A stretch of 64,000 bases of DNA, from positions 4,128,001 through 4,192,000 of the forward strand of contig CBDCWI010000002.1 in assembly GCA_965223325.1 (NCBI GenBank), in the 5' to 3' direction. Both the position numbers and the translations under genes were made by a program. The DNA is from Candidatus Multivoradales bacterium (lineage in GTDB: Bacteria > Acidobacteriota > Thermoanaerobaculia > Multivoradales > Multivoraceae). Shown here in pieces: positions 28,676 to 46,085 of the stretch (position 1 is the first letter of the stretch; every line of letters begins with the position of its first letter). The notes below the pieces were generated by a model that saw nothing but the letters and a program-made list of their open reading frames with translations, was not told the origin of the DNA and ran no database searches.

Positions 28676-28761
28676 TGAAGGACCATCTTAGCCAGTGGTT
28701 ACTGGCGCTACGTCAGGCCGCGGATCGTAGCCTGGGCGTCGCCCCGTGGTAATCTCGCAAG

Positions 28762-29634
28762 ATGCCTGCTCGTCCAATCAGCTCGGGAAACATCTCGTTC
28801 GGGCTCGTCTCGATTCCGGTCAAGATGTACCCCACGACCGACCACAGCGCCTCCATTCGCTTCAACATGCTCGACCCCAGCGACGGTACGCGGGTCAAGC
28901 AGCAGTACATCAACCCCGGAACCGGCGAGATCGTCAAGCGCAACCAGATGGTGAAGGGCTACGAGTTCTCGAAGGGGCAGTACGTCACCTTCACCAATGA
29001 AGAGATCGCCGACCTCGCACAGAAAGCGTCTCCGTCGATCGCCATCACCGAGTTCGTGCCCATGGAAGAAGTCGAGCCGATCTTCTACGACAACGCCTAC
29101 TTCCTCGGCCCGGAGACCGGCGGTGAGCGCGCCTACAAACTGCTCTCCGTTGCCATGCGCGAGACCGAACGCTGCGCATTGGCCCGCTATGCGGCGCGGG
29201 GCAAGCAGTACCTGGTGATGATTCGCCCCTTCGAAGACGGCGTCATCATGCAGCAAATGCACTACGCCGACGAGGTGCGTTCTTTTTCCGAAGTCCCACT
29301 TGGTGAAGACGAGATCGAGATTGAGGAGGCTGAGCTCAACCTGGCCAAGCAGCTCATCGAGCAGATCGCCAGTGACGCCTTCGAGCCCGGGAAGTACGAA
29401 GACGAAGTGCGCAAGCGTCTGTGGGAAGCCATTCAGGCCAAGGTGGCGGGTAAAGAAGTCACCATCGAAGAAGAGGCACCCAAGGCCAAGATCATCGACC
29501 TCATGGAGGCTCTCAAGAAGAGCCTTGCAGACGACGACGCCGGTTCCGACGCCAAGCCAGCCAAGAAGAGGGCCAAGGCCAAGAAAAAGTCCAGCAAGAA
29601 GGCGTCTCGCAAGAAGAAGACTGCAACCGGGTGA
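28762..29634 (+). CDS. ku: NHEJ Ku protein
   Basis: ISFGLVSIPVK, KGYE, IDLMEALKKS, Lys-rich tail; divergent from ligD. Confidence 0.96.
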   Translation: MPARPISSGNISFGLVSIPVKMYPTTDHSASIRFNMLDPSDGTRVKQQYINPGTGEIVKRNQMVKGYEFSKGQYVTFTNEEIADLAQKASPSIAITEFVPMEEVEPIFYDNAYFLGPETGGERAYKLLSVAMRETERCALARYAARGKQYLVMIRPFEDGVIMQQMHYADEVRSFSEVPLGEDEIEIEEAELNLAKQLIEQIASDAFEPGKYEDEVRKRLWEAIQAKVAGKEVTIEEEAPKAKIIDLMEALKKSLADDDAGSDAKPAKKRAKAKKKSSKKASRKKKTATG

Positions 29635-29671
29635 CCAGTTTCCTGCGACGCTGCTTGCGGCCCGAGCCTCG

Positions 29672-30286
29672 ATGACCGACGACAAGTCCAAGGGCTCCGG
29701 GAGTCATGACCGTTCGCGGCGTCGAGCGGCCCGTATCGAACCGGTAGGCGGCCAGTTGCCACTTCCGCTGTGGGAGCCCAGTGAGGAGGGTTACCAGGGT
29801 GCTCGCGTTCTCTCGTGGCGTCCCGCCGAGCCGAAAGAAGATGAGCTGCCCGTTGTGTCAGAAGCGTCGCTCAAGGGGTACGACGATCGAGAGGCCGCTG
29901 CAGGTTCGGTTGACGAAGAGGACTCCAGCGAACCCGAAGCCCTCGAGCAAGAGGCATTCGAAGGCGCGGCCGCAGCCTATGAAGCAGGTGACCTCGCGTT
30001 GGCCATACGTCTTTACCGGTTGGTCGTAAGGAGCACTCCCGGGGATGCGACCGCCTGGTTCAACCTCGGCGTTGCACTCGAAGAACAGGGTTCTGACGAG
30101 CATGCTCAGGCCGCCTACGCCAAGGTAACCGAAGTCGACCCCGGGTTTGCCGACGCCTGGTGGAACGCCGCCCGGCTGCATGAGAAGCACGGCCGCAAGT
30201 CGCTCGCCATCCAGTGCTTCAAGGAGTACAAGGCCTGCGGGTCAACGCTTTTAGAACACCCCGAAGATCCCGAGACCGCGACATGA
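29672..30286 (+). CDS. TPR-containing protein
   Basis: AWFNLGVAL, DPGFADAWWN TPR pairs. Confidence 0.7.
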   Translation: MTDDKSKGSGSHDRSRRRAARIEPVGGQLPLPLWEPSEEGYQGARVLSWRPAEPKEDELPVVSEASLKGYDDREAAAGSVDEEDSSEPEALEQEAFEGAAAAYEAGDLALAIRLYRLVVRSTPGDATAWFNLGVALEEQGSDEHAQAAYAKVTEVDPGFADAWWNAARLHEKHGRKSLAIQCFKEYKACGSTLLEHPEDPETAT

Positions 30287-35188: not shown

Positions 35189-35273
35189 GTCCAACAACCA
35201 CGTGCACTGGACGCGTACCCCGCACTCGCTTCGCTCGCGCGGGCTCCGCGCCAGTGACGTTCGTCCGTTGGAC
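35189..35273 (+). repeat. attC site
   Basis: GTCCAAC...CACTGGACGCG...CGCGCCAGTG...GTTGGAC. Confidence 0.9.
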
Positions 35274-35287
35274 GGCTGAACGGGGAA

Positions 35288-35902
35288 TTGACCGTGGGTA
35301 GGGCGACCATCGCCAAGAAGACGTTCGACGTGAACATCGAGCGAGCCAGCTACTTCCTCGACATTCACGAGCAGACACAACCCGGCGTCGGCGCGCCAAC
35401 ACTTGCCCGCCGAGAGCTCCCGAGAGGTGCGATTGTGTTCGGTGTCGGAGCGCTCGATGCCTACCTGTCCGAAATCTCGGCGGAGGTCATCGTTACTCGC
35501 CTCAGGGAAAGTGAAGCTTCTTCGCGCGAACGAGAAATCTTGAGGAAGGTCCAGAACGAGCTACCCACGCTAAGTCTCGAAGTGGCGCTCCTGGGATCTC
35601 AGGCCGCGAGGATCCAGCACATCCGAGATGCAGTGACGGACCACTTCTTCAACCATGTAAGCCATCATGGATCCAAGGCGGTGGGAGCAGTTCTGCAGCG
35701 AATGGACCTCCGGTCCGCCGACTTTTGGAACCATCTCTCCTCTAAAGGCCACAACGACGCAGCAGAGCGCTTGGATCACTGGACCAACGTTCGTCATGAG
35801 ATCGTCCATCATGGAAAGAAACCTCAGGTCCGCCGGCCACAGGCCCGGAAGTTCATCGAACTGGCCAAGGCTCTCGCCAGCCGATTGGACCATCATGCGT
35901 AG
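35288..35902 (+). CDS. HEPN-domain protein (putative RNase)
   Basis: Helical protein with N-terminal ALDAY..E and C-terminal R-x4-H (RHEIVH) motif. Confidence 0.72.
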   Translation: MTVGRATIAKKTFDVNIERASYFLDIHEQTQPGVGAPTLARRELPRGAIVFGVGALDAYLSEISAEVIVTRLRESEASSREREILRKVQNELPTLSLEVALLGSQAARIQHIRDAVTDHFFNHVSHHGSKAVGAVLQRMDLRSADFWNHLSSKGHNDAAERLDHWTNVRHEIVHHGKKPQVRRPQARKFIELAKALASRLDHHA

Positions 35903-35909
35903 CCACGCC

Positions 35910-35995
35910 GTCCAACAACCGCATGCACGTGGACGCAGACCCCGGGCTCGCTGCGCTCGCTCGGGGTTCACGCCAGTGATGCTCGTCCGTTCGGC
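35910..35995 (+). repeat. attC site
   Basis: GTCCAAC...CTCGCTGCGCTCGC...GTTCGGC. Confidence 0.9.
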
Positions 35996-36024
35996 GGCTG
36001 GCGCGCCGCGATACAATCAGGACC

Positions 36025-36267
36025 ATGACTGACGACGCCGCTGCCGTTCTCGAGCAAGCCCTGGTCCTGGACGAGTCATCCCGGGCTGACGTGGCTGCCG
36101 CCCTCATTCGAAGTCTTGAGCCTCCTGAGGAGGCAGACGTCGAAGAGGCCTGGCGCGAAGAGGTTCGCCGGCGCCTCGACGACTACAAGGCAGGCGAGAC
36201 CTCGACGGTCCCTTGGTCAGAAGTGCGCGATCAGCTCTTCTCGAGGTTGCGTGCCGCTAGAGGTTGA
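36025..36267 (+). CDS. Addiction-module antitoxin (TIGR02574-like)
   Basis: AL.L...RA..A..LI.SL, EAWREEVRRR, VPWSEV. Confidence 0.85.
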   Translation: MTDDAAAVLEQALVLDESSRADVAAALIRSLEPPEEADVEEAWREEVRRRLDDYKAGETSTVPWSEVRDQLFSRLRAARG

Positions 36268-36541
36268 ACTTACACGCCGCGCCCGCCTCGACATCGACGC
36301 CGGGTTCGAGTGGTACCTCGAGCGAAGCCCCAACGCTGCCGAGTCGTTCCTGCGCGAAGTCGATCGCGGAGTCGCCCTGGTCGTCGAGGCACCCGGCGTG
36401 TGGCCCACATTCGAGGGCGCCCAACGCTACGTACTCAACCGTTTTCCCTATTCGCTCATCTACACCGTCGAGGGTCATGTCGTGGTCGTACACGCCGTCG
36501 CGCATCAGAGCCGGCGCCCCGGGTACTGGAAGGACACGTGA
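36251..36541 (+). CDS. RelE/ParE-family toxin
   Basis: A..DI...FEWY, RFPYSLIY, VAHQSRRPGYW; overlaps the antitoxin stop. Confidence 0.88.
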   Translation: MPLEVELTRRARLDIDAGFEWYLERSPNAAESFLREVDRGVALVVEAPGVWPTFEGAQRYVLNRFPYSLIYTVEGHVVVVHAVAHQSRRPGYWKDT

Positions 36542-36549
36542 GCGGCGCC

Positions 36550-36632
36550 GCCGAACACACAGGTCGAGCTGACGTGAACCCGCGCTCGCTTCGCTCGCTC
36601 GGGCCCACGCAGCTCACCTTCGTCCGTTGGGC
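36550..36632 (+). repeat. attC site
   Basis: GCCGAAC...AGGTCGAGCTG...CAGCTCACCT...GTTGGGC. Confidence 0.9.
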
Positions 36633-36673
36633 TGCTCGGGAACCGCATGCGGTGAGCGCAGGTCGAACGATTC

Positions 36674-37204
36674 ATGGCTTCGAGGCGAATCCTCCGCACC
36701 CGGCCGGCCCTGCTGCTGTTGTTGCTGGTCGCCGCCTCCGCTCCACTCGGGTGCGTCGGCCGGCATCATCGCGAACTTCCTCCGCTCGTCAGCACGGAAC
36801 TCACACTCACTGGCGCGTCTTCGGCCCTTCTCGAGGGCCGTTGGCGGGATGTCGATTGGGTCGTGCTCGCAGAAGTCCAGCCGCGTCGACTCTCCGTTCG
36901 GGTACCAGACGGATTCTGGATCAGTGATGCGCGCGTGGTCGACCGCGAGGTTCGCTTCTTGCTTCACGGAGGCGGCGGAGAAGGCGAGATGGCGCTTCGT
37001 TTGCTGGATGCGGAGACAGTCGTGCTTCTTCCCGCCGGAAGCGAGCCGTCCTTCTGCGGAACCTGTACCCCCTACATGTCTCGTCTATCGACGCTCATCC
37101 GTCACCGTGCGCCGCGAGCTGTTCCTGACGGTCTCGCGTGGTTCTCAGACAGGGTCGAGGAACGGTACGAGGCCGGGATGGACTGGCTCGCATCCGTTCT
37201 TTGA
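36674..37204 (+). CDS. Cassette lipoprotein, hypothetical
   Basis: Basic N-terminus, hydrophobic stretch, PLGC lipobox, CGTC motif. Confidence 0.65.
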   Translation: MASRRILRTRPALLLLLLVAASAPLGCVGRHHRELPPLVSTELTLTGASSALLEGRWRDVDWVVLAEVQPRRLSVRVPDGFWISDARVVDREVRFLLHGGGGEGEMALRLLDAETVVLLPAGSEPSFCGTCTPYMSRLSTLIRHRAPRAVPDGLAWFSDRVEERYEAGMDWLASVL

Positions 37205-37211
37205 GCGCGCA

Positions 37212-37294
37212 GCCCAACAACTCACTCCACGCGACGCAAACCCGCTTCCGCTTCGCTCCAGCGGGCCTGCGCGCGTGAGCCTTGTCCGTTGGAC
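37212..37294 (+). repeat. attC site
   Basis: GCCCAAC...CACGCG..CGCTTCGC..CGCGTGAG...GTTGGAC. Confidence 0.88.
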
Positions 37295-37360
37295 AGCCTT
37301 GAGGCAACCACCTTGAATAGGTCAAGAGATCGTGTGCTTGTGACATGTTGGAGCGTGGCT

Positions 37361-37999
37361 ATGTCGCTCACTCTCGTGTCCTGTGCCGAGGAGTCAGAAG
37401 CTATGAAGCTCTTCAGAAGGTCCGTTTCCGTAGAGACTCAGTTGGCGGAACTCCGATCCTGCGGCATTGAGCTGAACGAGGGAGTCGAGATCGGCGATCT
37501 GACGACTTTCGACGACCGCGCTGCGCTGGAGAAGCGGCCCTACCAGGGCCTCGTTGAGGTTTTGGGTATCGACGTCGAGCGTGAACCGTTCACCCCTATC
37601 TGCGACTCGCTGTGGATGTGCGACTACGAGAGGGTCGAAGATCACGGGGCGTACGCTGAGGTCCTCGAGCGCCTTGAGCTCATGACAGGCTCAGCCTTGG
37701 GGTTATCCGACATAGAAGATCACGTTGACGTCTTCGACGAAGGCGTTGCTTGGGTCTCGTTTACGTTCGGCGGCCAGCCGCACAGGTGGGATTTCGAGGT
37801 GCAAGATGACTGGCTCGATCCCACCGTTTTCGTGAAATACGATCAGATGCTGAAGGCCGCTGAGTCTGAAGTGAGGATCTACTCGAACCATACCGACTAC
37901 GGACAAGTGGCATTTCTCGCGGCCTTCAGCGCGTCACAGCACCGGTGCTTTGAGAAGCTGTCCCCGGTGAAGTTGATGCAGATCGAGTACCAGGCATGA
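37361..37999 (+). CDS. Cassette hypothetical protein, copy 2 of 34532..35170
   Basis: Translation identical to copy 1; offset 2829 bp. Confidence 0.8.
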   Translation: MSLTLVSCAEESEAMKLFRRSVSVETQLAELRSCGIELNEGVEIGDLTTFDDRAALEKRPYQGLVEVLGIDVEREPFTPICDSLWMCDYERVEDHGAYAEVLERLELMTGSALGLSDIEDHVDVFDEGVAWVSFTFGGQPHRWDFEVQDDWLDPTVFVKYDQMLKAAESEVRIYSNHTDYGQVAFLAAFSASQHRCFEKLSPVKLMQIEYQA

Positions 38000-38017
38000 G
38001 AGTTCCCCAGTGCGGCT

Positions 38018-38102
38018 GTCCAACAACCACGTGCACTGGACGCGTACCCCGCACTCGCTTCGCTCGCGCGGGCTCCGCGCCAGTGACGTTCGTCCGCCGT
38101 AC
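38018..38102 (+). repeat. attC site with altered R' core (GCCGTAC instead of GTTGTAC)
   Basis: Identical to attC 35189 up to the crossover G at 38096. Confidence 0.85.
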
Positions 38103-38484
38103 TGCGCAGGGCACAGTCTAGGTAGCGGCCGGGGCATCGCGAGCTCAGCACGTTGCGCTATCGTCGCGGCCGATTCCGCCGAGCCGTTCGCGGGTGCCGA
38201 CCGTCACGTTCCCGCGGAAACGTTCCGGCGCCACCGCCGGCCCGCGGTGCCGCTCGGCCGGCAAGCTGTACCAGTCGGCCAAGGCCGGGCGGGCACTGGT
38301 TCCTTCTCGTAGCTGTTCAGCGGTGCAAGAATGTGCCTGTACCTGCGCCGTGCAGCCCTCGTCTCTCACCCGGCCGGCGCTACGGAGACCGGGCCGGTTC
38401 GTGGCTCGTGCCTTCTCGTCGAAGAACGCTGCGAGGATCTGAAGCGAACGTCAGCCATGGCAGCCGAAGAGAGCGCAGTACAAC
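38097..38484. other. ORF-less cassette A (388-bp body)
   Basis: Bounded by attC sites; colinear homolog at 41380..41767; no shared ORF. Confidence 0.75.
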
Positions 38485-38560
38485 AACCCGGTCAACTCGA
38501 CATGAACACGCGTCCGCTTCGCTCCCGCGCGTTCATGCGAGTTACCGTCGTCCGTTGGGA
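38478..38560 (+). repeat. attC site
   Basis: GTACAAC...AACTCGACATGAAC...GTTCATGCGAGTT...GTTGGGA. Confidence 0.9.
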
Positions 38561-38580
38561 GGCCTTGGTAGAATCTCGTC

Positions 38581-38802
38581 ATGGCTGACGTTTCTATGTC
38601 CGAAGTTCTTGAGCTGCCGGTGGAAGAACGCCTCCGCCTAGCCGAAGCGATCTGGGACAGCATCGCTGAATTCCCCGAGTCTGTTCCTCTTGCGGACGAG
38701 CACAGAGAAGAGCTCGACCGCCGCCTTGACGCCTACTACCGTGATCCAGCGTCCTCGAGCCCCTGGCCCGATGTGAAGAAGAGGCTGCTGAGCGGGAAGT
38801 GA
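38581..38802 (+). CDS. Addiction-module antitoxin (TIGR02574-like)
   Basis: LPVEERLRLAEAIWDSI, ELDRRL, PWPDVK. Confidence 0.9.
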   Translation: MADVSMSEVLELPVEERLRLAEAIWDSIAEFPESVPLADEHREELDRRLDAYYRDPASSSPWPDVKKRLLSGK

Positions 38803-39098
38803 CACTTGCATCGATCGTCACGCCCGAAGCCGAAGCCGACCTGTCCAACGCGTACTCTTGGTACGAACGCAGGGTCGATGGTCTCGGGCTCGACTTCATC
38901 GAGGAGTTTGAGGCGTTGCTGCAGAGGATCGGTGAACGCCCGGATTTGTACCAAGTCGTGCACCGCGATATCCGTCGAGCACTACTCCGCCGGTTTCCGT
39001 ACGCCGCGTTCTACGTTCAAGAGCTCGGGGCCGCCGTCATCATCGCTGTCTTACACCAAGCACAACACCCGCGGCGCGCCCTGTCCCGTCGGCGCTAG
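38799..39098 (+). CDS. RelE/ParE-family toxin
   Basis: AEADL..AY.WYE, GLG.DF, RRFPY, IAVLH. Confidence 0.9.
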   Translation: MTLASIVTPEAEADLSNAYSWYERRVDGLGLDFIEEFEALLQRIGERPDLYQVVHRDIRRALLRRFPYAAFYVQELGAAVIIAVLHQAQHPRRALSRRR

Positions 39099-39109
39099 TG
39101 AGCACGGCC

Positions 39110-39194
39110 TCCCAACAACGCGTTCCAGCAGACGCGAACCCCGGGCTCGTTGCGCTCGCTCGAGCTTCGCGCTGCTGAACTCAGTCCGTTGTGC
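39110..39194 (+). repeat. attC site
   Basis: TCCCAAC...GTTCCAGCAG...CTGCTGAAC...GTTGTGC. Confidence 0.9.
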
Positions 39195-39661
39195 GGCCTA
39201 AACTCGAGATTGCTGGCGCGCTGCTAGCCGGCGCGTTTCTCATAGCCTCGCCTCTCTCGGCGGGCGTAGGTCTGTGTGCGACCGTGGACGACGTTCAGGT
39301 TCTTGAGGAAGCGAACGGCTCGGCCACGGCAGTGAGAGTCTCCGGAGTGCATGACATCGGCGGACCTATCGACGTCATCGTGGTGTCGCTCGAAGTGCCC
39401 GGTCGGATTGCTGCCGAAGTGCACGTCTGCGGCGGCCCCAACATCCCGACCTCGTTCGACGAGACGCTTCCTCTGCCTGTTCTGCCGAAGGGCAGCTACC
39501 AACTGGAGACCATAGTCGTAGCTTGCAACTCGGAAGACAACCGCGAGTTGTGTAGCGTTACGCCCTTCGAGATCACCGTGAGTCCTATCCCGACCATGGG
39601 TAGGGCCGGGCTTGCGGCCTTGGCGATCCTCCTTCTCTGGTCAGCCAGGAGACGGCTGTGA
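39191..39661 (+). CDS. Secreted protein with IPTL-CTERM-like sorting tail
   Basis: Signal peptide; C-terminal PIPTM-GRAGLAALAILLLW-SARRRL; GTG start inside the attC R' box. Confidence 0.72.
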   Translation: MRPKLEIAGALLAGAFLIASPLSAGVGLCATVDDVQVLEEANGSATAVRVSGVHDIGGPIDVIVVSLEVPGRIAAEVHVCGGPNIPTSFDETLPLPVLPKGSYQLETIVVACNSEDNRELCSVTPFEITVSPIPTMGRAGLAALAILLLWSARRRL

Positions 39662-39759
39662 CGGTCAGGGCAGGCACGAGAGAACACGCCAAGCGGCCGC
39701 CCAACACCTATGAGGTCCCCTGACGTCAAGCGGCAAACGTCTCCTAGCGGACGCGGTCC

Positions 39760-40181
39760 GTAACGGTTTTCGGTCAGGTTTCGAATTCTGACTTTGGTTT
39801 CAGAGTGGGTGCGAGGCGAAGCCTCTGCACCAAACACCTATTGGGCCTCTGCCCTCGCCGAAGCGACGACTGCTGGCAGAGCCAGCGGACCAGAAACACA
39901 TCGGTGCCCTCGTACCGTCCGATTCAAACCGTGCTGGTCACGCCGGTGGCGTGCCGGAGTTGGTTGCCTGGTTCGGGTGAGGGGCAGAGGTCGAGATCGA
40001 CCGAATGCTGGCAGGTGAGTGGGAAGCCTCGTCCATTCAACCGGTCTGGCTGCCGGCTCTTGTGTCTCAGGCGCGTTGGGTGTCGATGCACCTGGAGCGG
40101 GTACTCCAATGAAGCGCCAAGGATGAGATCGGGCCGTGTGGCTCCAGTTAGGCGGAGGGCTCGAGGCTTCCAACTCGGAGA
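39760..40181 (-). ncRNA. Putative bridge/seekRNA of the IS1111 element (boundaries approximate)
   Basis: Long stems 40022-31/40162-71 and 39846-62/39972-90, flanked by segments matching the attC target halves and the IS ends. Confidence 0.7.
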
Positions 40182-41225
40182 TCAAGCGTTCATGAAGGTC
40201 GGGGGGTGGAAGGCTTCGTTGTTCTTGAGCATGAAGTAGACGGCGCGGCCCAGCTTGTGGCGGAGCACGGCGTAGGCCTTGGTCTTGCCGTGCTTGCGCT
40301 TGAGGCGCTCGAGCATCTTCTTGCCGTGAGCCTGGCGCTGAGCGAAGAGCACGGCGGCCTCAGAGAAAGCCCACTTGAGGTGGTGGTTGCCGATCTTGTG
40401 GCGACCGCTGCCGGTTCGCTTGCCTGCAGACTCATGCTGCGGTCGGATCAGCCTGGCGTAGGAGGCAAACTGCTGCACGGTGGGAAACCTCGAGATGTCT
40501 TCGATCTCGTAGAGCATCGTCATGCCGAGGATAGGACCGACGCCGGGAATCGAAGTGAGGCGCGACAGTACGCTTGGATCGTGATCCTTGGCCAGAGCGA
40601 AGAGATGCCTCTCGACATCGGAGATCACCTCGTCGAAGGCCGCGATGAGTCGCTAGTTGGCGTCGATACTTTTCTTCGCTGACGGATCATCGAAGTGATG
40701 GAGGAGATCCGTGCGGTCCGACGGCCTGGCGATCCTGCCGAGCGACGTGTCGCAGTTGTACTGAGTGTTCGAGGTGCGGATGTGGACGAAGAGCTCGGCG
40801 CGCTTGCGTGTGAAGTACTGGCGCCTGCGCAGGAGATCTCTCGCGGCTCTCATCTTCTTGGGATAGGTGTAGGCCATTGGAAAGGTCCCGCCTCGTAGGA
40901 GGGCGGCGAGCTTGTAGGAATCGACCTTGTCGTTCTTGGCCTTGGCGCCGTGGATCGCGCTCATATAGAGGGCGTGGCCAAGCACGAATTCGATTCCCTC
41001 CTCGGCGCAGAGGTCGGCGAGCCAGTACCAGGAGAACATGCACTCGACACCCACGACCAGATCGTCTCGGAAGGGTTCGATGGCCTCGAGGAAGGCATCA
41101 GGCCGAGCGGGGATGTTTCGGTGGTAGATCTTCTCGCCGTCCTCGTCGAGGACGCAGAGGTACATCTTGCGAGCATGCAGATCGACACCGCAGGTGTGGC
41201 GATGACGGCGGTTGTAGAATCGCAT
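40182..41225 (-). pseudogene. IS110-family recombinase with one in-frame TAG (40653-40655)
   Basis: DEDD motifs GVDLH, GVEC, KNDKVD; SIPGVG, ESAGK, GNHHLKWAF; both ORF halves are in the same frame; AAGGAG RBS. Confidence 0.9.
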
Positions 41226-41309
41226 CGAGGTCTCCTTGAAAAGAGTTTCTGTTTTACCGCTCGCAAGCTACCGCGTGGGTAGCTCGCCAGGGGACCTCAA
41301 TGATCTTCA

Positions 41310-41385
41310 ATCGGATGGAGCCGACGAGAACCTGCGCTCGCTTCGCTCGCGGCAGTTCCCGCGGCTCTTCCTCGTTCCGTTGTAC
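41310..41385 (+). repeat. Distal part of the attC split by the IS (R'' GCCCAAC at 39699-39705)
   Basis: GGATGGAGCCG...CGCTCGCTTCGCTCGC...CGGCTCTTCC...GTTGTAC. Confidence 0.88.
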
Positions 41386-41767
41386 TGCGCAGGCACCGCC
41401 TGGGTAGCGGGCAGGGCGTCGCGAGCTCAGAACGTCGCGAGATCGTGGCGGCCGGTTCTGCCGGGCCGTTCGCTTGTGCCGGTCGCGACGTTCCCGCGGG
41501 AACGTCGCAGCGTCGCCCACCGCCCTGCGGTGCAGCTCGGCCGCTTCGGTGTGCTCGTCGGTCAGGGCCAGGCGGGCGCCGTGTTCTTCTCGCAGTCGCT
41601 CGGCGGTGCAAGAATGGGCCGGTACCTGCGCCGTGCAGCTCTCGTCTCTCACCCGGTCGGCGCTACGAAGGCCGGGTCGTTTCGTGGCTCGAGCTTTCTC
41701 GTTGAAGAACGCCGCGAGGATCGGAAGCGAACGTCAGCCAGGGCATCCGAAGAGAGCGCAGTACAAC
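41380..41767. other. ORF-less cassette B (388-bp body), diverged homolog of A
   Basis: TTGTACTGCGC...GCGCAGTACAAC ends; 24-bp perfect palindrome GCGACGTTCCCGCGGGAACGTCGC. Confidence 0.75.
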
Positions 41768-41770
41768 GAC

Positions 41771-42274
41771 GTGGCTGAGATCCGCTGCACGAAGAAGCTG
41801 CTCGGTCGGTTCCAGCAGGAGCGTGGAGTGCAAGTCAGCGGCGGCGCCGCTCTAGGCAACTGGGTCGCGAACATCGTTCCCGTCTTCGGGGGTGAGGTTG
41901 TACTTGCGCTGAACGAGCTTTACTTGCTCACGCTCGTCCTGCCCTCCGATCGGCTCGAGAGACTTCCGGAGACGGTCGGTGCCGAGGCGTCCAAGGTGCT
42001 TCTTACGGCCGGCGCTCCACCGGCCTTTGCCGGCGCGGTCCAAGCTGAGGCTGCCAGCGCCTTGATCGCGCAGAACAGAAGTCGGCACTTCGTTGGTTTG
42101 CTGAACCAGGTCTCGGCGGCCGTGCAAGAGTGGGCAGAGCTTCCGTCACCCTTCCTTATTCGCAACCAGGCTGAGATGGAGAACCGGCTCCTGGGTTGGC
42201 TCTACGGGCCACATCCGAACTACCGCCACCCCAAGGACGAGATCGCCAGAGCAATCGAGCGCTTCCGTGAGTAG
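41771..42274 (+). CDS. DUF6933-like cassette protein
   Basis: IRCTKKLL...LGNWVAN...NE..LLTLV...RHFVGLLN. Confidence 0.6.
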   Translation: MAEIRCTKKLLGRFQQERGVQVSGGAALGNWVANIVPVFGGEVVLALNELYLLTLVLPSDRLERLPETVGAEASKVLLTAGAPPAFAGAVQAEAASALIAQNRSRHFVGLLNQVSAAVQEWAELPSPFLIRNQAEMENRLLGWLYGPHPNYRHPKDEIARAIERFRE

Positions 42275-42277
42275 GCA

Positions 42278-42360
42278 GGACAACCACCCGGTCAACTCGA
42301 CATGAACCCGCGTCCGCTTCGCTCCCGCGTGTCCATGCGAGTTACAATTGCCCGTTAGCC
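42278..42360 (+). repeat. attC site, closely related to attC 38478
   Basis: GGACAAC-cacc-CGGTCAACTCGACATGAAC...CATGCGAGTTAC...GTTAGCC. Confidence 0.85.
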
Positions 42361-42365
42361 AGTGC

Positions 42366-42443
42366 AGGCGACGCGATACAGCCACGAACCCCGGCTCGCT
42401 GCGCTCGCTCGGGCTTCGTGCTGCTGAGCCTTGTCCGCTGGGC
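42366..42443 (+). repeat. Degenerate attC directly after another attC
   Basis: Retains CACGAACCCCGG-CTCGCTGCGCTCGC-TCGGGCTTCGTG; R'' lost, R' reads GCTGGGC. Confidence 0.7.
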
Positions 42444-42454
42444 CGCACCTGGTG

Positions 42455-42475
42455 GTAGCATGGTATCCGTGCTAT
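42455..42475 (+). promoter_or_regulatory. Likely HigA operator/promoter inverted repeat
   Basis: TAGCATGG-tat-CCGTGCTA immediately upstream of higB. Confidence 0.5.
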
Positions 42476-42484
42476 CATGTTTGC

Positions 42485-42781
42485 GTGATTCGGTCGTTCG
42501 CAGACGCCGGTACTGAGGACATCTTCAACGGTCGGAACACTCGGGCCGCAAGGAAGTCGTGCCCGCGCAACCTTTGGAACGTGGCCGCGCGCAAGCTGGA
42601 ACAGATCGACGCCGCTGAGGAGTTCGACGATCTGCGAGTCCCACCGGGAAACAGGCTAGAGGCGCTGTCAAGAGACCGAAAGGGACAGTTCAGTATCCGA
42701 GTCAACTCTCAGTACCGCATCTGTTTCGTCTGGACTCCGTCCGGCCCGGACGAAGTGGAGATCGTCGACTACCACCGCTAG
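42485..42781 (+). CDS. higB: HigB toxin (RelE superfamily)
   Basis: IRSF.D..TE, DLRVPPGNRLEAL, QFSIRVNSQYRICF, EIVDYH. Confidence 0.92.
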   Translation: MIRSFADAGTEDIFNGRNTRAARKSCPRNLWNVAARKLEQIDAAEEFDDLRVPPGNRLEALSRDRKGQFSIRVNSQYRICFVWTPSGPDEVEIVDYHR

Positions 42782-42789
42782 AGGTCGCC

Positions 42790-43104
42790 ATGGTTCGCAT
42801 TCCCACTCACCGCACCCCAACTCATCCCGGCGTTATGCTGCTCGAGGACTTCCTCGAACCGATGGGCATCTCGCAGCGCGAACTGGCCGATGGGATTCGC
42901 GTTCCGTACCAGCGGGTCAACGAGCTGGTGAACGGGAAGCGTGGCGTCACGCCTGCCACCGCCCTGCGCCTGGGGAAGTTCTTCGGCATGAGTGCGGGGT
43001 TCTGGATGAACCTTCAACTTCGGTGGGACCTCTTTCACGCCCAGCGATCCGAGGGTGAGGCTCTCAGGAAGATCCGCCAGGTAAAGGTAACCGTGGAGGC
43101 CTGA
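42790..43104 (+). CDS. higA: HigA antitoxin (HTH-XRE)
   Basis: PTHPG.ML.EDFL.P, NGKRGVT..TALRL, FWMNLQ. Confidence 0.93.
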   Translation: MVRIPTHRTPTHPGVMLLEDFLEPMGISQRELADGIRVPYQRVNELVNGKRGVTPATALRLGKFFGMSAGFWMNLQLRWDLFHAQRSEGEALRKIRQVKVTVEA

Positions 43105-43122
43105 GGTGGGCACGGCCCAACA

Positions 43123-43598
43123 CCGATGAGGTCCCCTGACGTCAAGCGGCAAACGTTTCCTAGCGGACGAGGTCCGTAACGGTTTTCGATCAGATTTCGA
43201 TATCTGGCTTTGGTTTCAGAGCGGGTGCGAGGCGAAGCCTCTGCACCAAACACCTATTGGGCCTCTGCCCTCGCTTTCGCGACGACTGCTGGCCTGGGCC
43301 AGCGGACCAGAAACACATCGGTGCCCTCGTACCGTCCGATTCAAACCGTGCTGGTCACGCCGGTGGCGTGCCGGAGTTGGTTGCCTGGTTCGGGTGAGGG
43401 GCAGATGTCGAGATCGACCGAATGCTGGCAGGTGAGTGGGAAGCCTCGTCCATTCAACCGGTCTGGCTGCCGGCTCAGATGTCTCAGGGCGCGTTGGGTG
43501 TCGATGCACCAGGAGCGGGTACTCCGATGAAGCGCGATGGATGAGGTCGGGCCGTGTGGCTCCAATTAGGCGGAGGGCTCGAGGCTTCCGACTCGGAG
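43123..43598 (-). mobile_element. Transposase-less IS1111 right end (bridge-RNA module) inserted in an attC
   Basis: Colinear, highly similar copy of 39707-40180, again right after GCCCAA-CA; similarity stops where the tnp stop codon would be. Confidence 0.88.
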
Positions 43599-43692
43599 TT
43601 CCACCCATCGCGGTGCTTGCTACGATGAAATCCGTGCGCTTCACGGCTTCTGACAAGACGCTTCACACGACCCGGCCGAGGCGTTAGGCCCC

Positions 43693-44124
43693 GTGCAGGA
43701 CCATGGCATCCGGCTGGCCGTTAAGAAGGACCTGGCGGCGCTAGTCGATGTCGACCCCATGGCTCGCGACGATGGTGGCCGAGGAGAGCTGGTCCGTGGC
43801 GCGATCGAAGCGCAACGGGCCTGGATTCTCGAGGTCTCGCTCTGCCCCGTTGGGTACGGAATCATCTCCCACGACTTCTTTGGCCGATCGTTCCTGGACC
43901 TGATCTTGATTGCGGAATCTCAACGCTCAAAGGGATACGGGCCGCGCTTGATTGCTTTCCTCGAAGGCCTCTCCCGATCCAACGACCTGTTCACCTCGAC
44001 CAACCAGTCCAATTCACACATGCGGCACGTTCTCGAGAAACTCGGCTACGAGCGATCGGGGATCATTCACAATCTTGACCCTGACGACCCGGAGATCGTG
44101 TACGTCAAACGTGTTGAGTGTTGA
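43693..44124 (+). CDS. GNAT-family N-acetyltransferase (cassette-like; follows GTTAGGC at 43683)
   Basis: QRSKGYG motif A, STNQSN..M, EKLGY, LDPDDPE. Confidence 0.85.
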   Translation: MQDHGIRLAVKKDLAALVDVDPMARDDGGRGELVRGAIEAQRAWILEVSLCPVGYGIISHDFFGRSFLDLILIAESQRSKGYGPRLIAFLEGLSRSNDLFTSTNQSNSHMRHVLEKLGYERSGIIHNLDPDDPEIVYVKRVEC

Positions 44125-44279
44125 GCATGCCCGGTAAGGCGGCCCGCGTGCGCCCTGTGACGCCGTAGGGCCCCGGACGTCTGTGTGACCTCCGGTGCCG
44201 CGGCGCCCTCCTGCTACGCGGAGTAGCATGACGAACACGGCGTGACTCGTTCGACCACGCCCAAACGAAGGACCTCGAG

Positions 44280-46085
44280 ATGAACCGACGATGCTGCGTT
44301 GTAGCGGCGGCGCTCTGCACCGCGGTCGCCATGGCGGCCTCCGGCCAGGAGGCGAGTGAGCGACAGGCGTTCTTTGGCGACCTGCACATCCACACCAACT
44401 ACTCGTTCGACGCCTTCACCGGCAATGTGCGTACGACCCCGGACGATGCCTACCTGTACGCCAAGGGGCAGCCCATTGCACACCCTTCGGGCGACGCGAT
44501 TCGCATCACCGGCCGACCGCTCGACTTCTTGATGGTTGCTGACCACGCGGAGTACCTTGGCATTCACGCCGCCCTGCTTGACCCGACCAGCCCGACCTAC
44601 GGTCATCCGGAGACCGACTCGGTGCTTCCCAGGCCGGGAACGACATTCATGGCAACTGCTCGCCGGCTGAACGAACTGATCACCTCCGGTCACGAGATCG
44701 TCAGAGATGAGGTGATCGCTGACGCCTGGACCAAGACCATCGAAGCCGCTGAGCGGCACAACGACCCCGGAACGTTCACCACCTTTGTCGGCTTCGAGTA
44801 CACGCCAACCCCCGACGCGCGTCATTTGCACCGCAATGTCGTCTTTCGCAGCTCGGATGTGCCTGAGATGCCGTTCTCGGCGCGCGACTCAGGCAATCCA
44901 GAAGATCTTTGGACGTGGCTCGACGCGCGCCGCGCCGAAGGTATCGAAGCCTTGGCCATTCCGCACAATATGAACCAGAGCGACGGGCTCGCTTTCCAGC
45001 AACAGACCTTCGGCGGCAAGCCGATCGATCGCGACTGGGCGGAGAAGCGGATGCGCAATGAGCCCGTCGCCGAGATCAGTCAGCAGAAGGGCACTTCGGA
45101 AACGCACCCGTCGCTATCGCCGAACGACGAGTGGGCTGACTTCCAGATCGTCCAGTACTATCGGAATCGCGCCGAGAACAAGGATCCGATCTCGGTCTTC
45201 AAGGGTGGCTACTACCGCGACGCGCTCCGTGTGGGTCTCGAGTTCGAGGAGAAGCTCGGTGCCAACCCGTACCAACTCGGCGTCGTTGCCGCCAGCGACA
45301 GCCACACGTCGGCTGCCGCCTACGAGGAAGACAACTACTTCAGCAATCCCAACTCGCCCGCGGCGCGCGGTTCCTCCTACCGGGGAGAGGACGGAAGCTG
45401 GGACGGCTTCTTCACGCCTCGCCAGGCGACGCATGGCACAGGCGGTCTCACTGGGGTCTGGGCCGAAGAGAACAGCCGCGCCGCGATTTACGACGCCATG
45501 CGCCGGAAGGAGTCCTTCGGCACTTCGGGGCCGCGTATCCGCGTGCGGATGTTCGGCGGCTTCGGTCTGGACCGGGCGCTCCGCGGCTCAGCCGATCCGG
45601 TCGCCGAGGCCTACCAGGGCGGTGTTCCCATGGGCGGCGTGCTGCCGGCGAATGGGTCTGGCGCGCCGAGCTTCCTAGTCTGGGCCATGCGCGATCCCGA
45701 GACCGGCTGGTTACAGCGCGCGCAAGTGATCAAGGGGTGGGTGGACGAGGGCGAATCGCACGAGCGGGTCTATGACGTCGCGTGCAGCGACGGCCTCGAG
45801 CCGGACCCCAGGACGCACCGCTGCCCTGACAATGGCGCCCGCGTGAATCTGGCGGACTGCTCGGTGAGCCGTGACAAGGGCGCCGTGGAGTTGCGGACGG
45901 TGTGGACCGACCCCGACTTCGATGCTTCGGAGCGCGCCTTCTATTACGTTCGTGTGCTCGAGAACCCGAGTTGCCGCTGGTCGATGTGGGACGCTCTGCG
46001 CTCCGGCATCGAGCCCAACCCCGATCTCCCCACCACGCATCAGGAACGTGCCTGGAGCTCGCCGATCTGGTACCAGCCCGAGTAG
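44280..46085 (+). CDS. DUF3604 (PHP-like) secreted protein
   Basis: FGDLHIHT.YSFDA, DFLMVADH, LHRNV, IPHN, QERAWSSPIWY. Confidence 0.88.
   Translation: MNRRCCVVAAALCTAVAMAASGQEASERQAFFGDLHIHTNYSFDAFTGNVRTTPDDAYLYAKGQPIAHPSGDAIRITGRPLDFLMVADHAEYLGIHAALLDPTSPTYGHPETDSVLPRPGTTFMATARRLNELITSGHEIVRDEVIADAWTKTIEAAERHNDPGTFTTFVGFEYTPTPDARHLHRNVVFRSSDVPEMPFSARDSGNPEDLWTWLDARRAEGIEALAIPHNMNQSDGLAFQQQTFGGKPIDRDWAEKRMRNEPVAEISQQKGTSETHPSLSPNDEWADFQIVQYYRNRAENKDPISVFKGGYYRDALRVGLEFEEKLGANPYQLGVVAASDSHTSAAAYEEDNYFSNPNSPAARGSSYRGEDGSWDGFFTPRQATHGTGGLTGVWAEENSRAAIYDAMRRKESFGTSGPRIRVRMFGGFGLDRALRGSADPVAEAYQGGVPMGGVLPANGSGAPSFLVWAMRDPETGWLQRAQVIKGWVDEGESHERVYDVACSDGLEPDPRTHRCPDNGARVNLADCSVSRDKGAVELRTVWTDPDFDASERAFYYVRVLENPSCRWSMWDALRSGIEPNPDLPTTHQERAWSSPIWYQPE

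Follow-up and report, generated by a model that had tools for sequence, protein, structure and literature searches.

The window analysed here is a 64,000-nucleotide (nt) stretch of contig CBDCWI010000002.1 from Candidatus Multivoradales bacterium (Acidobacteriota), and it carries an array of gene cassettes at about 35189-43122 with repeated attC sites (repeat families D2, D4 and D8; the attCs were taken from these repeat families, a strict attC regular expression having found just two). One cassette, at 42431-43104, holds a higB/HTH toxin-antitoxin pair (higBA). In its attC sits an orphan piece of insertion sequence (IS), about 480 bases long, that comprises only the non-coding, guide-RNA right end of an IS1111-type element, while a full element of the same kind, copy A, occupies 39699-41320. 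The orphan is in all probability a one-ended deletion remnant of an independent IS1111-attC type insertion in the attC behind higBA. That it is an independent insertion and not a local duplication follows from its different flanks, its identical junction and its divergence of 5.1-9.3 % from every other copy in the genome.

Alignment with copy A defines the extent of the orphan closely. Positions 43115-43601 are 94 % identical (E 9e-214) to positions 1-485 of the full element, and a family-profile nhmmer search scores the orphan at 381.8 bits against 383.8 for the full copy. Both begin with GCCCAA|CA followed by CC(T/G)ATGAGGTCCCCTGACG; in the orphan, GCCCAA lies at 43115-43120 and CA at 43121-43122, 10 bases past the stop of the antitoxin open reading frame (ORF). 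The original prediction, made from the letters of the window, had described a diverged copy of the non-coding end at exactly this point of the higBA attC, and identity and junction agree with it. It also had the copy ending about where the transposase would stop, which holds as well: the last homologous bases, 43598-43601, align to 40180-40183, and the copy A transposase stop is at 40182-40184 on the minus strand, so that the orphan breaks off within about 3 nt of the would-be stop codon.

Beyond the break, the rest of the element is missing. The left IS end (CAGGGGACCTCAATGATCTTCA) was not found downstream of the orphan, and neither left-end sequence nor a partner for the subterminal repeat occurs within 43602-43700. 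With no transposase ORF and no left end, the orphan is, judged by its sequence, a fragment of a member of the IS1111 group of the IS110 family and not itself a member. The missing attC body, likewise predicted, is borne out by the 82 nt that follow. They end at GTTAGGC (43684-43690), a possible R' box, after which the GNAT gene begins. Their DNA fold has a z-score of +0.88, compared with -0.97, -2.97 and -2.90 for three attC controls from the same array; the minimum free energy of 43602-43691 is -12.8 kcal/mol, a value equalled by 164 of 200 shuffles, and the controls form long hairpins. A short-word blastn search of the genome with the 82 nt gave chance words only, and no match was found in 57 genomes of the family. 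The idea that these bases are an attC remainder, left by a precise loss of the transposase gene and left end, was rejected because they contain no attC-like hairpin.

Copy A shows what the parent element would have looked like. Its non-coding RNA end (39707-40181, about 475 nt) adjoins the transposase gene (40182-41225), which an in-frame TAG (40653-40655) splits into two parts; these match PF01548 (DEDD_Tnp_IS110, E 1.1e-14, 40653-41225, minus strand) and PF02371 (Transposase_20, E 9e-21, 40182-40652, minus strand). A DEDD RuvC-like domain together with a Transposase_20 domain, a long non-coding region past the transposase and 11-nt subterminal inverted repeats (GAGGTCCCCTG and its left-end partner CAGGGGACCTC) give copy A, as far as sequence can tell, the anatomy of the IS1111 group of the IS110 family. 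Next to the right-end repeat, CTTGAC is invariant in all 16 aligned homologues, and its TTGAC may, by analogy with other IS110/IS1111 elements as described for them (PMC12288879), be the -35 half of a circle-junction promoter.

The insertion point is fixed in position and orientation. AAC stands right before the IS terminus in all seven copies of the genome and at all 15 loci of relatives, with the same RYYYAAC box and junction each time, so the orphan does provide the independent confirmation of the target site that had been claimed for it. In copies A-D the remainder of the attC follows the other IS end. The IS1111-attC group is described as inserting just after the RYYYAAC box of attC (PMC11187229).

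No functional transposase gene of this family survives in the genome. All four transposase-bearing copies are broken, each in its own way: copy A by the nonsense codon, copy B by frameshifts and a stop, copy C by one frameshift, and copy D by a deletion of about 165 bp between two GATCTTC repeats that took away the 5' end of the gene. When both transposase halves were used in tblastn searches of the genome assembly (98.2 % complete, two contigs, C1 and C2), the only match beyond these four copies was a short degenerate piece at C2:980959-981179, and whole-genome searches with PF01548 and PF02371 matched only the same four, with no other IS110-family recombinase. The IS family is extinct in this genome. 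The family profile finds exactly seven RNA-end copies, five complete and two cut. Among the copies, divergence in the non-coding end (4.5-9.3 %) is similar to that in the gene (5.2-11.5 %), and its mosaic distribution along the element suggests that copies have exchanged sequence or that they go back to several founding lineages.

The two cut copies break at other points than the orphan. Remnant F (C1:2124992-2125287) keeps 295 nt and abuts the terminus of a multi-copy IS. Of remnant G (C2:3829797-3829986) 190 nt are left, bordering on unique chromosomal DNA at the distal end of the integrase-linked array; a 60-nt internal piece lies at C2:3824959-3825018. The search for further transposase-less copies that the original prediction had proposed yields two, and no second copy with the orphan's boundary exists in the genome. 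The IS that cuts F (C1:2125288 onward, locus L006) is itself present in more than 20 copies or ends on both contigs, with clusters of many copies at C2:4.44-4.49 Mb and at C1:2.12-2.14 Mb; its initial 37 nt also occur in the opposite orientation.

The RNA encoded by the retained end was characterised in an alignment of the RNA-sense non-coding ends of the five complete copies and 11 relatives (n = 16), the transposases of these relatives being 47-76 % identical to that of copy A. The RNAalifold consensus contains 60 pairs, 23 of them with changes on both sides; pairing holds in 96.6 % of cells as against 35-46 % when the partners are slid, both-side changes number 23 as against 4-6, and none of 500 shuffles reaches the score of the consensus structure, figures that are to be read knowing that the structure was derived from the same alignment and that a single deep split between two clades accounts for most of the changes. 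At the family level the RNA region is real and has a covariation-supported structure, and G-U pairs in the minus sense favour minus as the RNA strand. The stretch 36000-46000, scanned against Rfam 15 with E up to 1, yielded one chance match elsewhere and no curated family.

The best helix is the one that closes the target-binding loop, where eight of 11 pairs show compensatory changes. The strands of its internal loop read CCGCCUAAC on the 5' side and CCGGUUG on the 3' side in the family structure. By hand count, CCGCCUAAC of copy A pairs with 9 nt of the right flank (one G-U), 7-10 nt pairing in most relatives, and CCGGUUG agrees with the left flank CCGAUUG at six of seven positions, the seventh being a G-U, on the opposite strand; the two loop segments are thus complementary to opposite target strands on either side of the core. 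Relatives with CAUAAC guides have GTTATG or GTTGTG flanks in three of four cases. In the orphan, the guide segments are kept where they had been predicted, as ATTAGGCGG at 43565-43573 and CAACCGG at 43455-43461, which form the 5' strand CCGCCUAAU and the 3' strand CCGGUUG of the RNA loop. The first makes seven contiguous pairs, two of them G-U, by the same kind of count, and the flank of the second is gone. The 3' strand of the target loop (40038-40049) is identical in copies A, B and the orphan, while copies C and D differ from it at 5-6 of 12 positions within conserved surroundings, and the guides of C and D fit their own flanks no better; this change may record a past re-programming of the guide or local decay.

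Two further parts of the RNA are strongly conserved. A second stem set of 12 pairs is 100 % paired and barely variable, and hence offers no covariation evidence; it closes a loop similar to the target loop and is a candidate donor-binding loop. The invariant 18-nt block downstream reads in the same direction as a junction made up of IS end, core and target flank (AUAGG-UG-UU) and for that reason is probably a donor or handshake guide. Table 1 lists the features of the locus and the reference copies.

Table 1. Coordinates of the orphan, its parts and neighbours, and the transposase-bearing copies (window positions unless a contig is named)
Feature	Position	Strand	Description
higB-like toxin ORF	42431-42781	+	PF05015 HigB-like_toxin, E 2e-17
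HTH antitoxin ORF	42790-43104	+	PF01381 HTH_3, E 5.8e-9
5' remainder of attC	43114-43122	+	R''-like box GGCCCAAC and core CA (43121-43122) where the IS joined
Orphan IS remnant	43123-43601	- (RNA sense)	From IS terminus to former transposase stop; 94 % identity to 39699-40183
Right-end subterminal repeat GAGGTCCCCTG and outward TTGAC	43128-43146	-	Repeat 43128-43138; GTCAAG on the plus strand at 43141-43146
18-nt block AAUAGGUGUUUGGUGCAG	43241-43258 (copy A: 39825-39842)	-	Invariant in 16/16
Second invariant stem set	43322-43403	-	UGCCCCUC..CCG..CC with GG..CGG..GAGGGCA
Target-binding loop	43439-43589	-	Closing stem GGAAGCCUCG (43580-43589) with CGAGGCUUCC (43439-43448)
82 nt between breakpoint and GTTAGGC	43602-43683	.	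Neither IS sequence nor attC body
GNAT acetyltransferase ORF	43693-44124	+	PF00583 and PF12228; last gene before chromosomal DUF3604 (44280-46085)
Copy A, full-length reference	39705-41308	-	Core CA on both sides; element proper 39707-41306
Copy B	C2:3820234-3821846
Copy C	C2:4398887-4400500
Copy D	C2:3825920-3827357

Related right ends are widespread. An exact scan of public genomes for the 18-mer gave 72 occurrences in 71 loci from many phyla; family homology extends beyond the 18-mer in 65 of the 72, and the other seven count as chance matches, of which about 17 would be expected in 596 Gb by our own arithmetic. The 18-mer is invariant in Gemmatimonadota, Acidobacteriota, Chloroflexota, Desulfobacterota-type, Bacteroidota, Planctomycetota and gammaproteobacterial genomes (L046-L116) and may be of use as a tag in searches for attC-targeting IS1111 elements. 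For 39 loci the sequence extends 1500 nt or more upstream; both transposase domains are present in 27 of them, a fragment in three and no transposase in nine. The target-loop covariance model, applied to eight of these nine, finds the loop only in L082 (Terriglobia), a complete-module orphan that is 99.6 % identical to full copies, one of them in the same genome; so close a match to its parents makes it recent, not conserved. Right ends of 281-383 nt, with no transposase, are also retained at four loci of a different family in the order. Altogether, 11 of the 14 transposase-less remnants examined lack the target loop and one has part of it, loop presence resting on the covariance model; breakpoints placed by blastn against a relative of 70-88 % identity are approximate. 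Complete-module orphans are the long tail of this spread of breakpoints.

Loci that keep a right end without a transposase include L031, L034, L035, L036, L047, L082, L083, L087, L095, L103 and L115. A further locus, L102 on an Acidobacteriota contig, has two RNA modules in tandem, 715 nt apart (at about 5475 and 6190 in RNA sense), separated by just the final third of a transposase gene, an arrangement that resembles a partial tandem duplication of the right end.

The original prediction had left two readings side by side, a deletion scar or a stand-alone guide RNA. The IS1111-attC anatomy, guides and target point that it described were right, and the evidence favours its scar over its functional guide. 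What is shown directly is the anatomy of the fragment, the family-level structure of the RNA, the disruption of every recombinase gene and the differing breakpoints of the sister remnants, while the order of events, the lack of expression and the fixing of the cassette are deduced. The scar is favoured because the genome has no intact recombinase, remnants break at different points, and the orphan carries private changes at invariant positions: two of its 11 private changes fall where the other 15 sequences do not vary, at 43565 (the core-proximal guide base) and at 43125 (the IS terminus). It is favoured also because a sister species has higBA without the orphan, no counterpart being present beside the higBA homologue in the genome of that same-genus species (G001), and because no source of transcription is obvious. 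The RNA of a full copy follows the transposase gene on the same strand, and the orphan has neither this gene nor the left end. For more than 2 kb upstream of the orphan there is no gene on the minus strand, and scans for consensus promoters found none in 42900-43900 or in 39500-41500, which is weak evidence in a GC-rich organism. Since the genome has no recombinase and the locus no evident promoter, the orphan is most likely inert.

In the course of events that would have produced the locus, the bridge or seek RNA of the parent element would have paired with both strands of the attC R'' region, and its recombinase would have joined the element at the core CA. A later illegitimate deletion or replacement would then have taken out the attC hairpin along with the transposase gene and the left IS end, leaving the right-end RNA gene joined to 82 nt of unrelated DNA. 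Without an attC hairpin, a cassette cannot be excised at the site concerned. Since the foldable attC of the higBA cassette is gone, integron integrase should no longer be able to excise the cassette there; this attC is disabled, with only the R'' box left, and it can be soundly inferred that the cassette is fixed.

Several observations nevertheless weigh against a mere scar. All 60 consensus pairs are standard in the orphan, whereas the transposase-bearing copies keep 57-59 of 60; the original prediction's one weakened long stem was not reproduced, and its GCTGGC-loop-GCCAGC hairpin differs, as it had said, in the loop only (aga in the full copy, cctgg/ctgg in the orphan). The 120 paired columns (of 546) contain none of the 11 private changes, against an expectation of about 2.4 (P ~0.065, our own arithmetic). 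A unique breakpoint and substitutions random with respect to structure had been named in advance as signs of simple decay; the breakpoint is indeed unique, and the substitutions may lean the other way to the extent just given. With the target-loop covariance model R1, the orphan scores 148.7 bits and copy A 151.0 over the whole model. The break at the transposase stop leaves nothing but a complete RNA gene, which is neat for a random deletion. Short right-end remnants, moreover, exceed what uniform breakpoints would give, with three of three in this genome, four of four in the other family and nine without any transposase against three with a fragment in the census, where searches outside this genome could find only remnants that keep the right end. 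The fold of the orphan is intact, in a sample too small to separate conservation from youth, and repeated loss of sequence from the free side may suffice as a neutral explanation, the antitoxin gene guarding the other side at a distance of ten bases.

The complete fold, the unpaired positions of the private changes and the boundary at the stop codon are also what a stand-alone bridge or seek RNA gene would display, one that is transcribed on its own and kept by selection. Further support comes from L082 as a second complete-module orphan and from ISKpn4 and ISPa25, whose seek RNAs are reported to share target matches and a similar predicted fold although their transposases are 46 % identical (PMC11187229). 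Such a gene is quite improbable here, and so are its two conceivable roles, guiding the recombinase of an incoming IS1111-attC element in trans or titrating recombinase as a decoy that protects the array: there is no intact IS110-family recombinase to guide, the transposase gene and left end are lost with no minus-strand gene upstream to supply transcription, no consensus promoter was seen (again weak evidence), two invariant positions have changed, most transposase-less remnants have no target loop, the sister species does not conserve the orphan, and L082 is recent. Even less probable, to a degree that makes it extremely doubtful, is a derivative like a miniature inverted-repeat transposable element (MITE), non-autonomous but with its own ends and mobilised in trans after the manner of MITEPpu9/ssr9 of ISPpu9. 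The ssr9 modules offer a precedent, as they are described with both IS ends, with circles of their own and at sites away from the transposase gene (PMC12288879), and the orphan does sit at the canonical target point. Against this, no second IS end or subterminal-repeat partner follows the breakpoint, what follows on the right does not make up the second half of an attC, and the boundary is unique in the genome, with no second copy.

A different origin of the scar would be aberrant excision by the IS recombinase itself, the left end having been paired with a pseudo-site inside the RNA gene. DNA that encodes guides mimics target and donor half-sites, which would explain why right-end remnants are usually short, and breakpoints do fall in or at the edge of the RNA region, about 30 % of the element, in three of three, four of four and, in the census, nine of 12 cases; a 2026 preprint also reports half-match recombination by bridge recombinases (10.64898/2026.08.31.748434). 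An excision of this kind should leave an attC remainder to the right of the break, and since none is there, excision by the recombinase is unsupported. G abuts chromosomal DNA and F another IS, breakpoints compared by eye share no core dinucleotide or half-site, and outside this genome the apparent excess carries the bias of the searches towards right ends, so that this origin, too, is quite improbable. The chance that the orphan is an assembly artefact, a mis-joined repeat, is close to nil. The repeat exists in five to seven genome copies and short-read contigs break inside it, but contigs of three public runs, possibly from the source sample and for that reason no independent support, cross both orphan junctions with zero mismatches, and the orphan bears 11 substitutions of its own. 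These contigs cover 42302-43144/43155 on the left and 43487 or 43569 to 44274/44400 on the right, reaching at least 22 nt into the orphan at its left junction and 32-114 nt at its right; as contigs of sister copies cover parts of the repeat, they show only that the junctions exist.

The deletion remnant and its parent can be placed among known systems. Like ISKpn4, ISPst6 and ISPa25 of the IS1111-attC group as described by Siddiquee et al. 2024 (PMC11187229), the parent has a DEDD transposase, a long downstream non-coding region, subterminal repeats and one fixed insertion point at the attC end, a likeness that rests on anatomy and published description and not on the sequences of those elements. 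It also resembles the seekRNA described there in having an RNA just past the transposase stop with two short segments that match opposite target strands, while its target loop of about 150 nt, with an inner extension, exceeds the peak seekRNA of 82-86 nt given for IS1111-attC members (PMC11187229). The host differs from the named members' setting in being an environmental, GC-rich bacterium, and the orphan differs from them in lacking the transposase gene and the left end. Older papers on the IS1111-attC group are said to be those of Tetu and Holmes in 2008 and of Post and Hall in 2009.

With the IS621 bridge RNA (Durrant et al. 2024, PMC11208160), the RNA shares two loop domains, a core flanking the inserted element and a target-binding internal loop in which each strand pairs with one of the DNA strands, on opposite sides of the core dinucleotide. 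It differs from the published account of IS621 in lying at the right end instead of the left, and its donor part forms no simple internal loop, as is noted there for many IS1111 elements (PMC11208160). MITEPpu9/ssr9 of ISPpu9 is, like the orphan, an IS110-family RNA module without a transposase gene in a genome that has full copies; as reported, though, it has both end boxes, forms circles and is multi-copy, in contrast to the single end and unique boundary of the orphan, and Ssr9 is described as dispensable for transposition and not as a guide RNA (PMC12288879). Ordinary IS remnants of decaying families are comparable as well: the orphan has one end and private substitutions, and its sister copies carry nonsense, frameshift and deletion lesions, one being truncated by another IS. 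From such remnants the orphan differs in that its RNA gene is complete and its protein gene wholly gone.

Around the orphan, the array offers some further observations. Upstream of it lie infC and ligD. No integron integrase was found beside the window array, the ORF at 28708-29691 (minus strand) having no NCBIfam match, and the sole TIGR02249 match above cut-off in the genome is at C2:3807261-3808190, 320 kb off. IS copies and remnants are spread over at least three attC clusters on C2 and one site on C1. Two cassettes of the array, at 38110-38560 and 41392-41770 (families D1 and D6), are paralogous with 78-84 % identity, and one of them, a DUF6933 ORF, stands directly behind copy A. Behind the GNAT ORF no attC-like sequence was seen. 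A GNAT paralogue of 79 % identity (C2:4396011-4396426) occurs 2.4 kb downstream of copy C, behind an IS3-type two-ORF element, and GNAT genes of this type may be cassette cargo in the genome.

The IS1111-attC group and its guide RNA have been described before, and there is nothing unusual in a one-ended remnant of a dead IS family; the parent element is new within that known group, and the orphan is most likely its inert remnant. Phrase searches of the literature found no paper describing an orphan, stand-alone or solo bridge RNA or an orphan seekRNA, and were the orphan RNA expressed and active, it would be the first natural bridge RNA uncoupled from its recombinase. A living guide-RNA gene that acts in trans on incoming IS1111-attC recombinases is hardly to be expected here. 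If it existed, it could re-arm such recombinases against attC sites, or, by soaking up recombinase or marking an occupied site, confer insertion immunity on the cassette array, and the bias towards right-end remnants across several phyla would then reflect selection instead of erosion. For annotation, these 480 bases are not an unknown RNA gene, and they mark a higBA attC that has been destroyed, with the cassette presumably fixed in an array that has no integrase. For the IS group, the analysis contributes a target-binding loop supported by covariation and an invariant 18-nt block, both shared by several phyla, and a census in which about a quarter of the assessable relatives have lost the recombinase gene and kept the right end, usually without the target loop.

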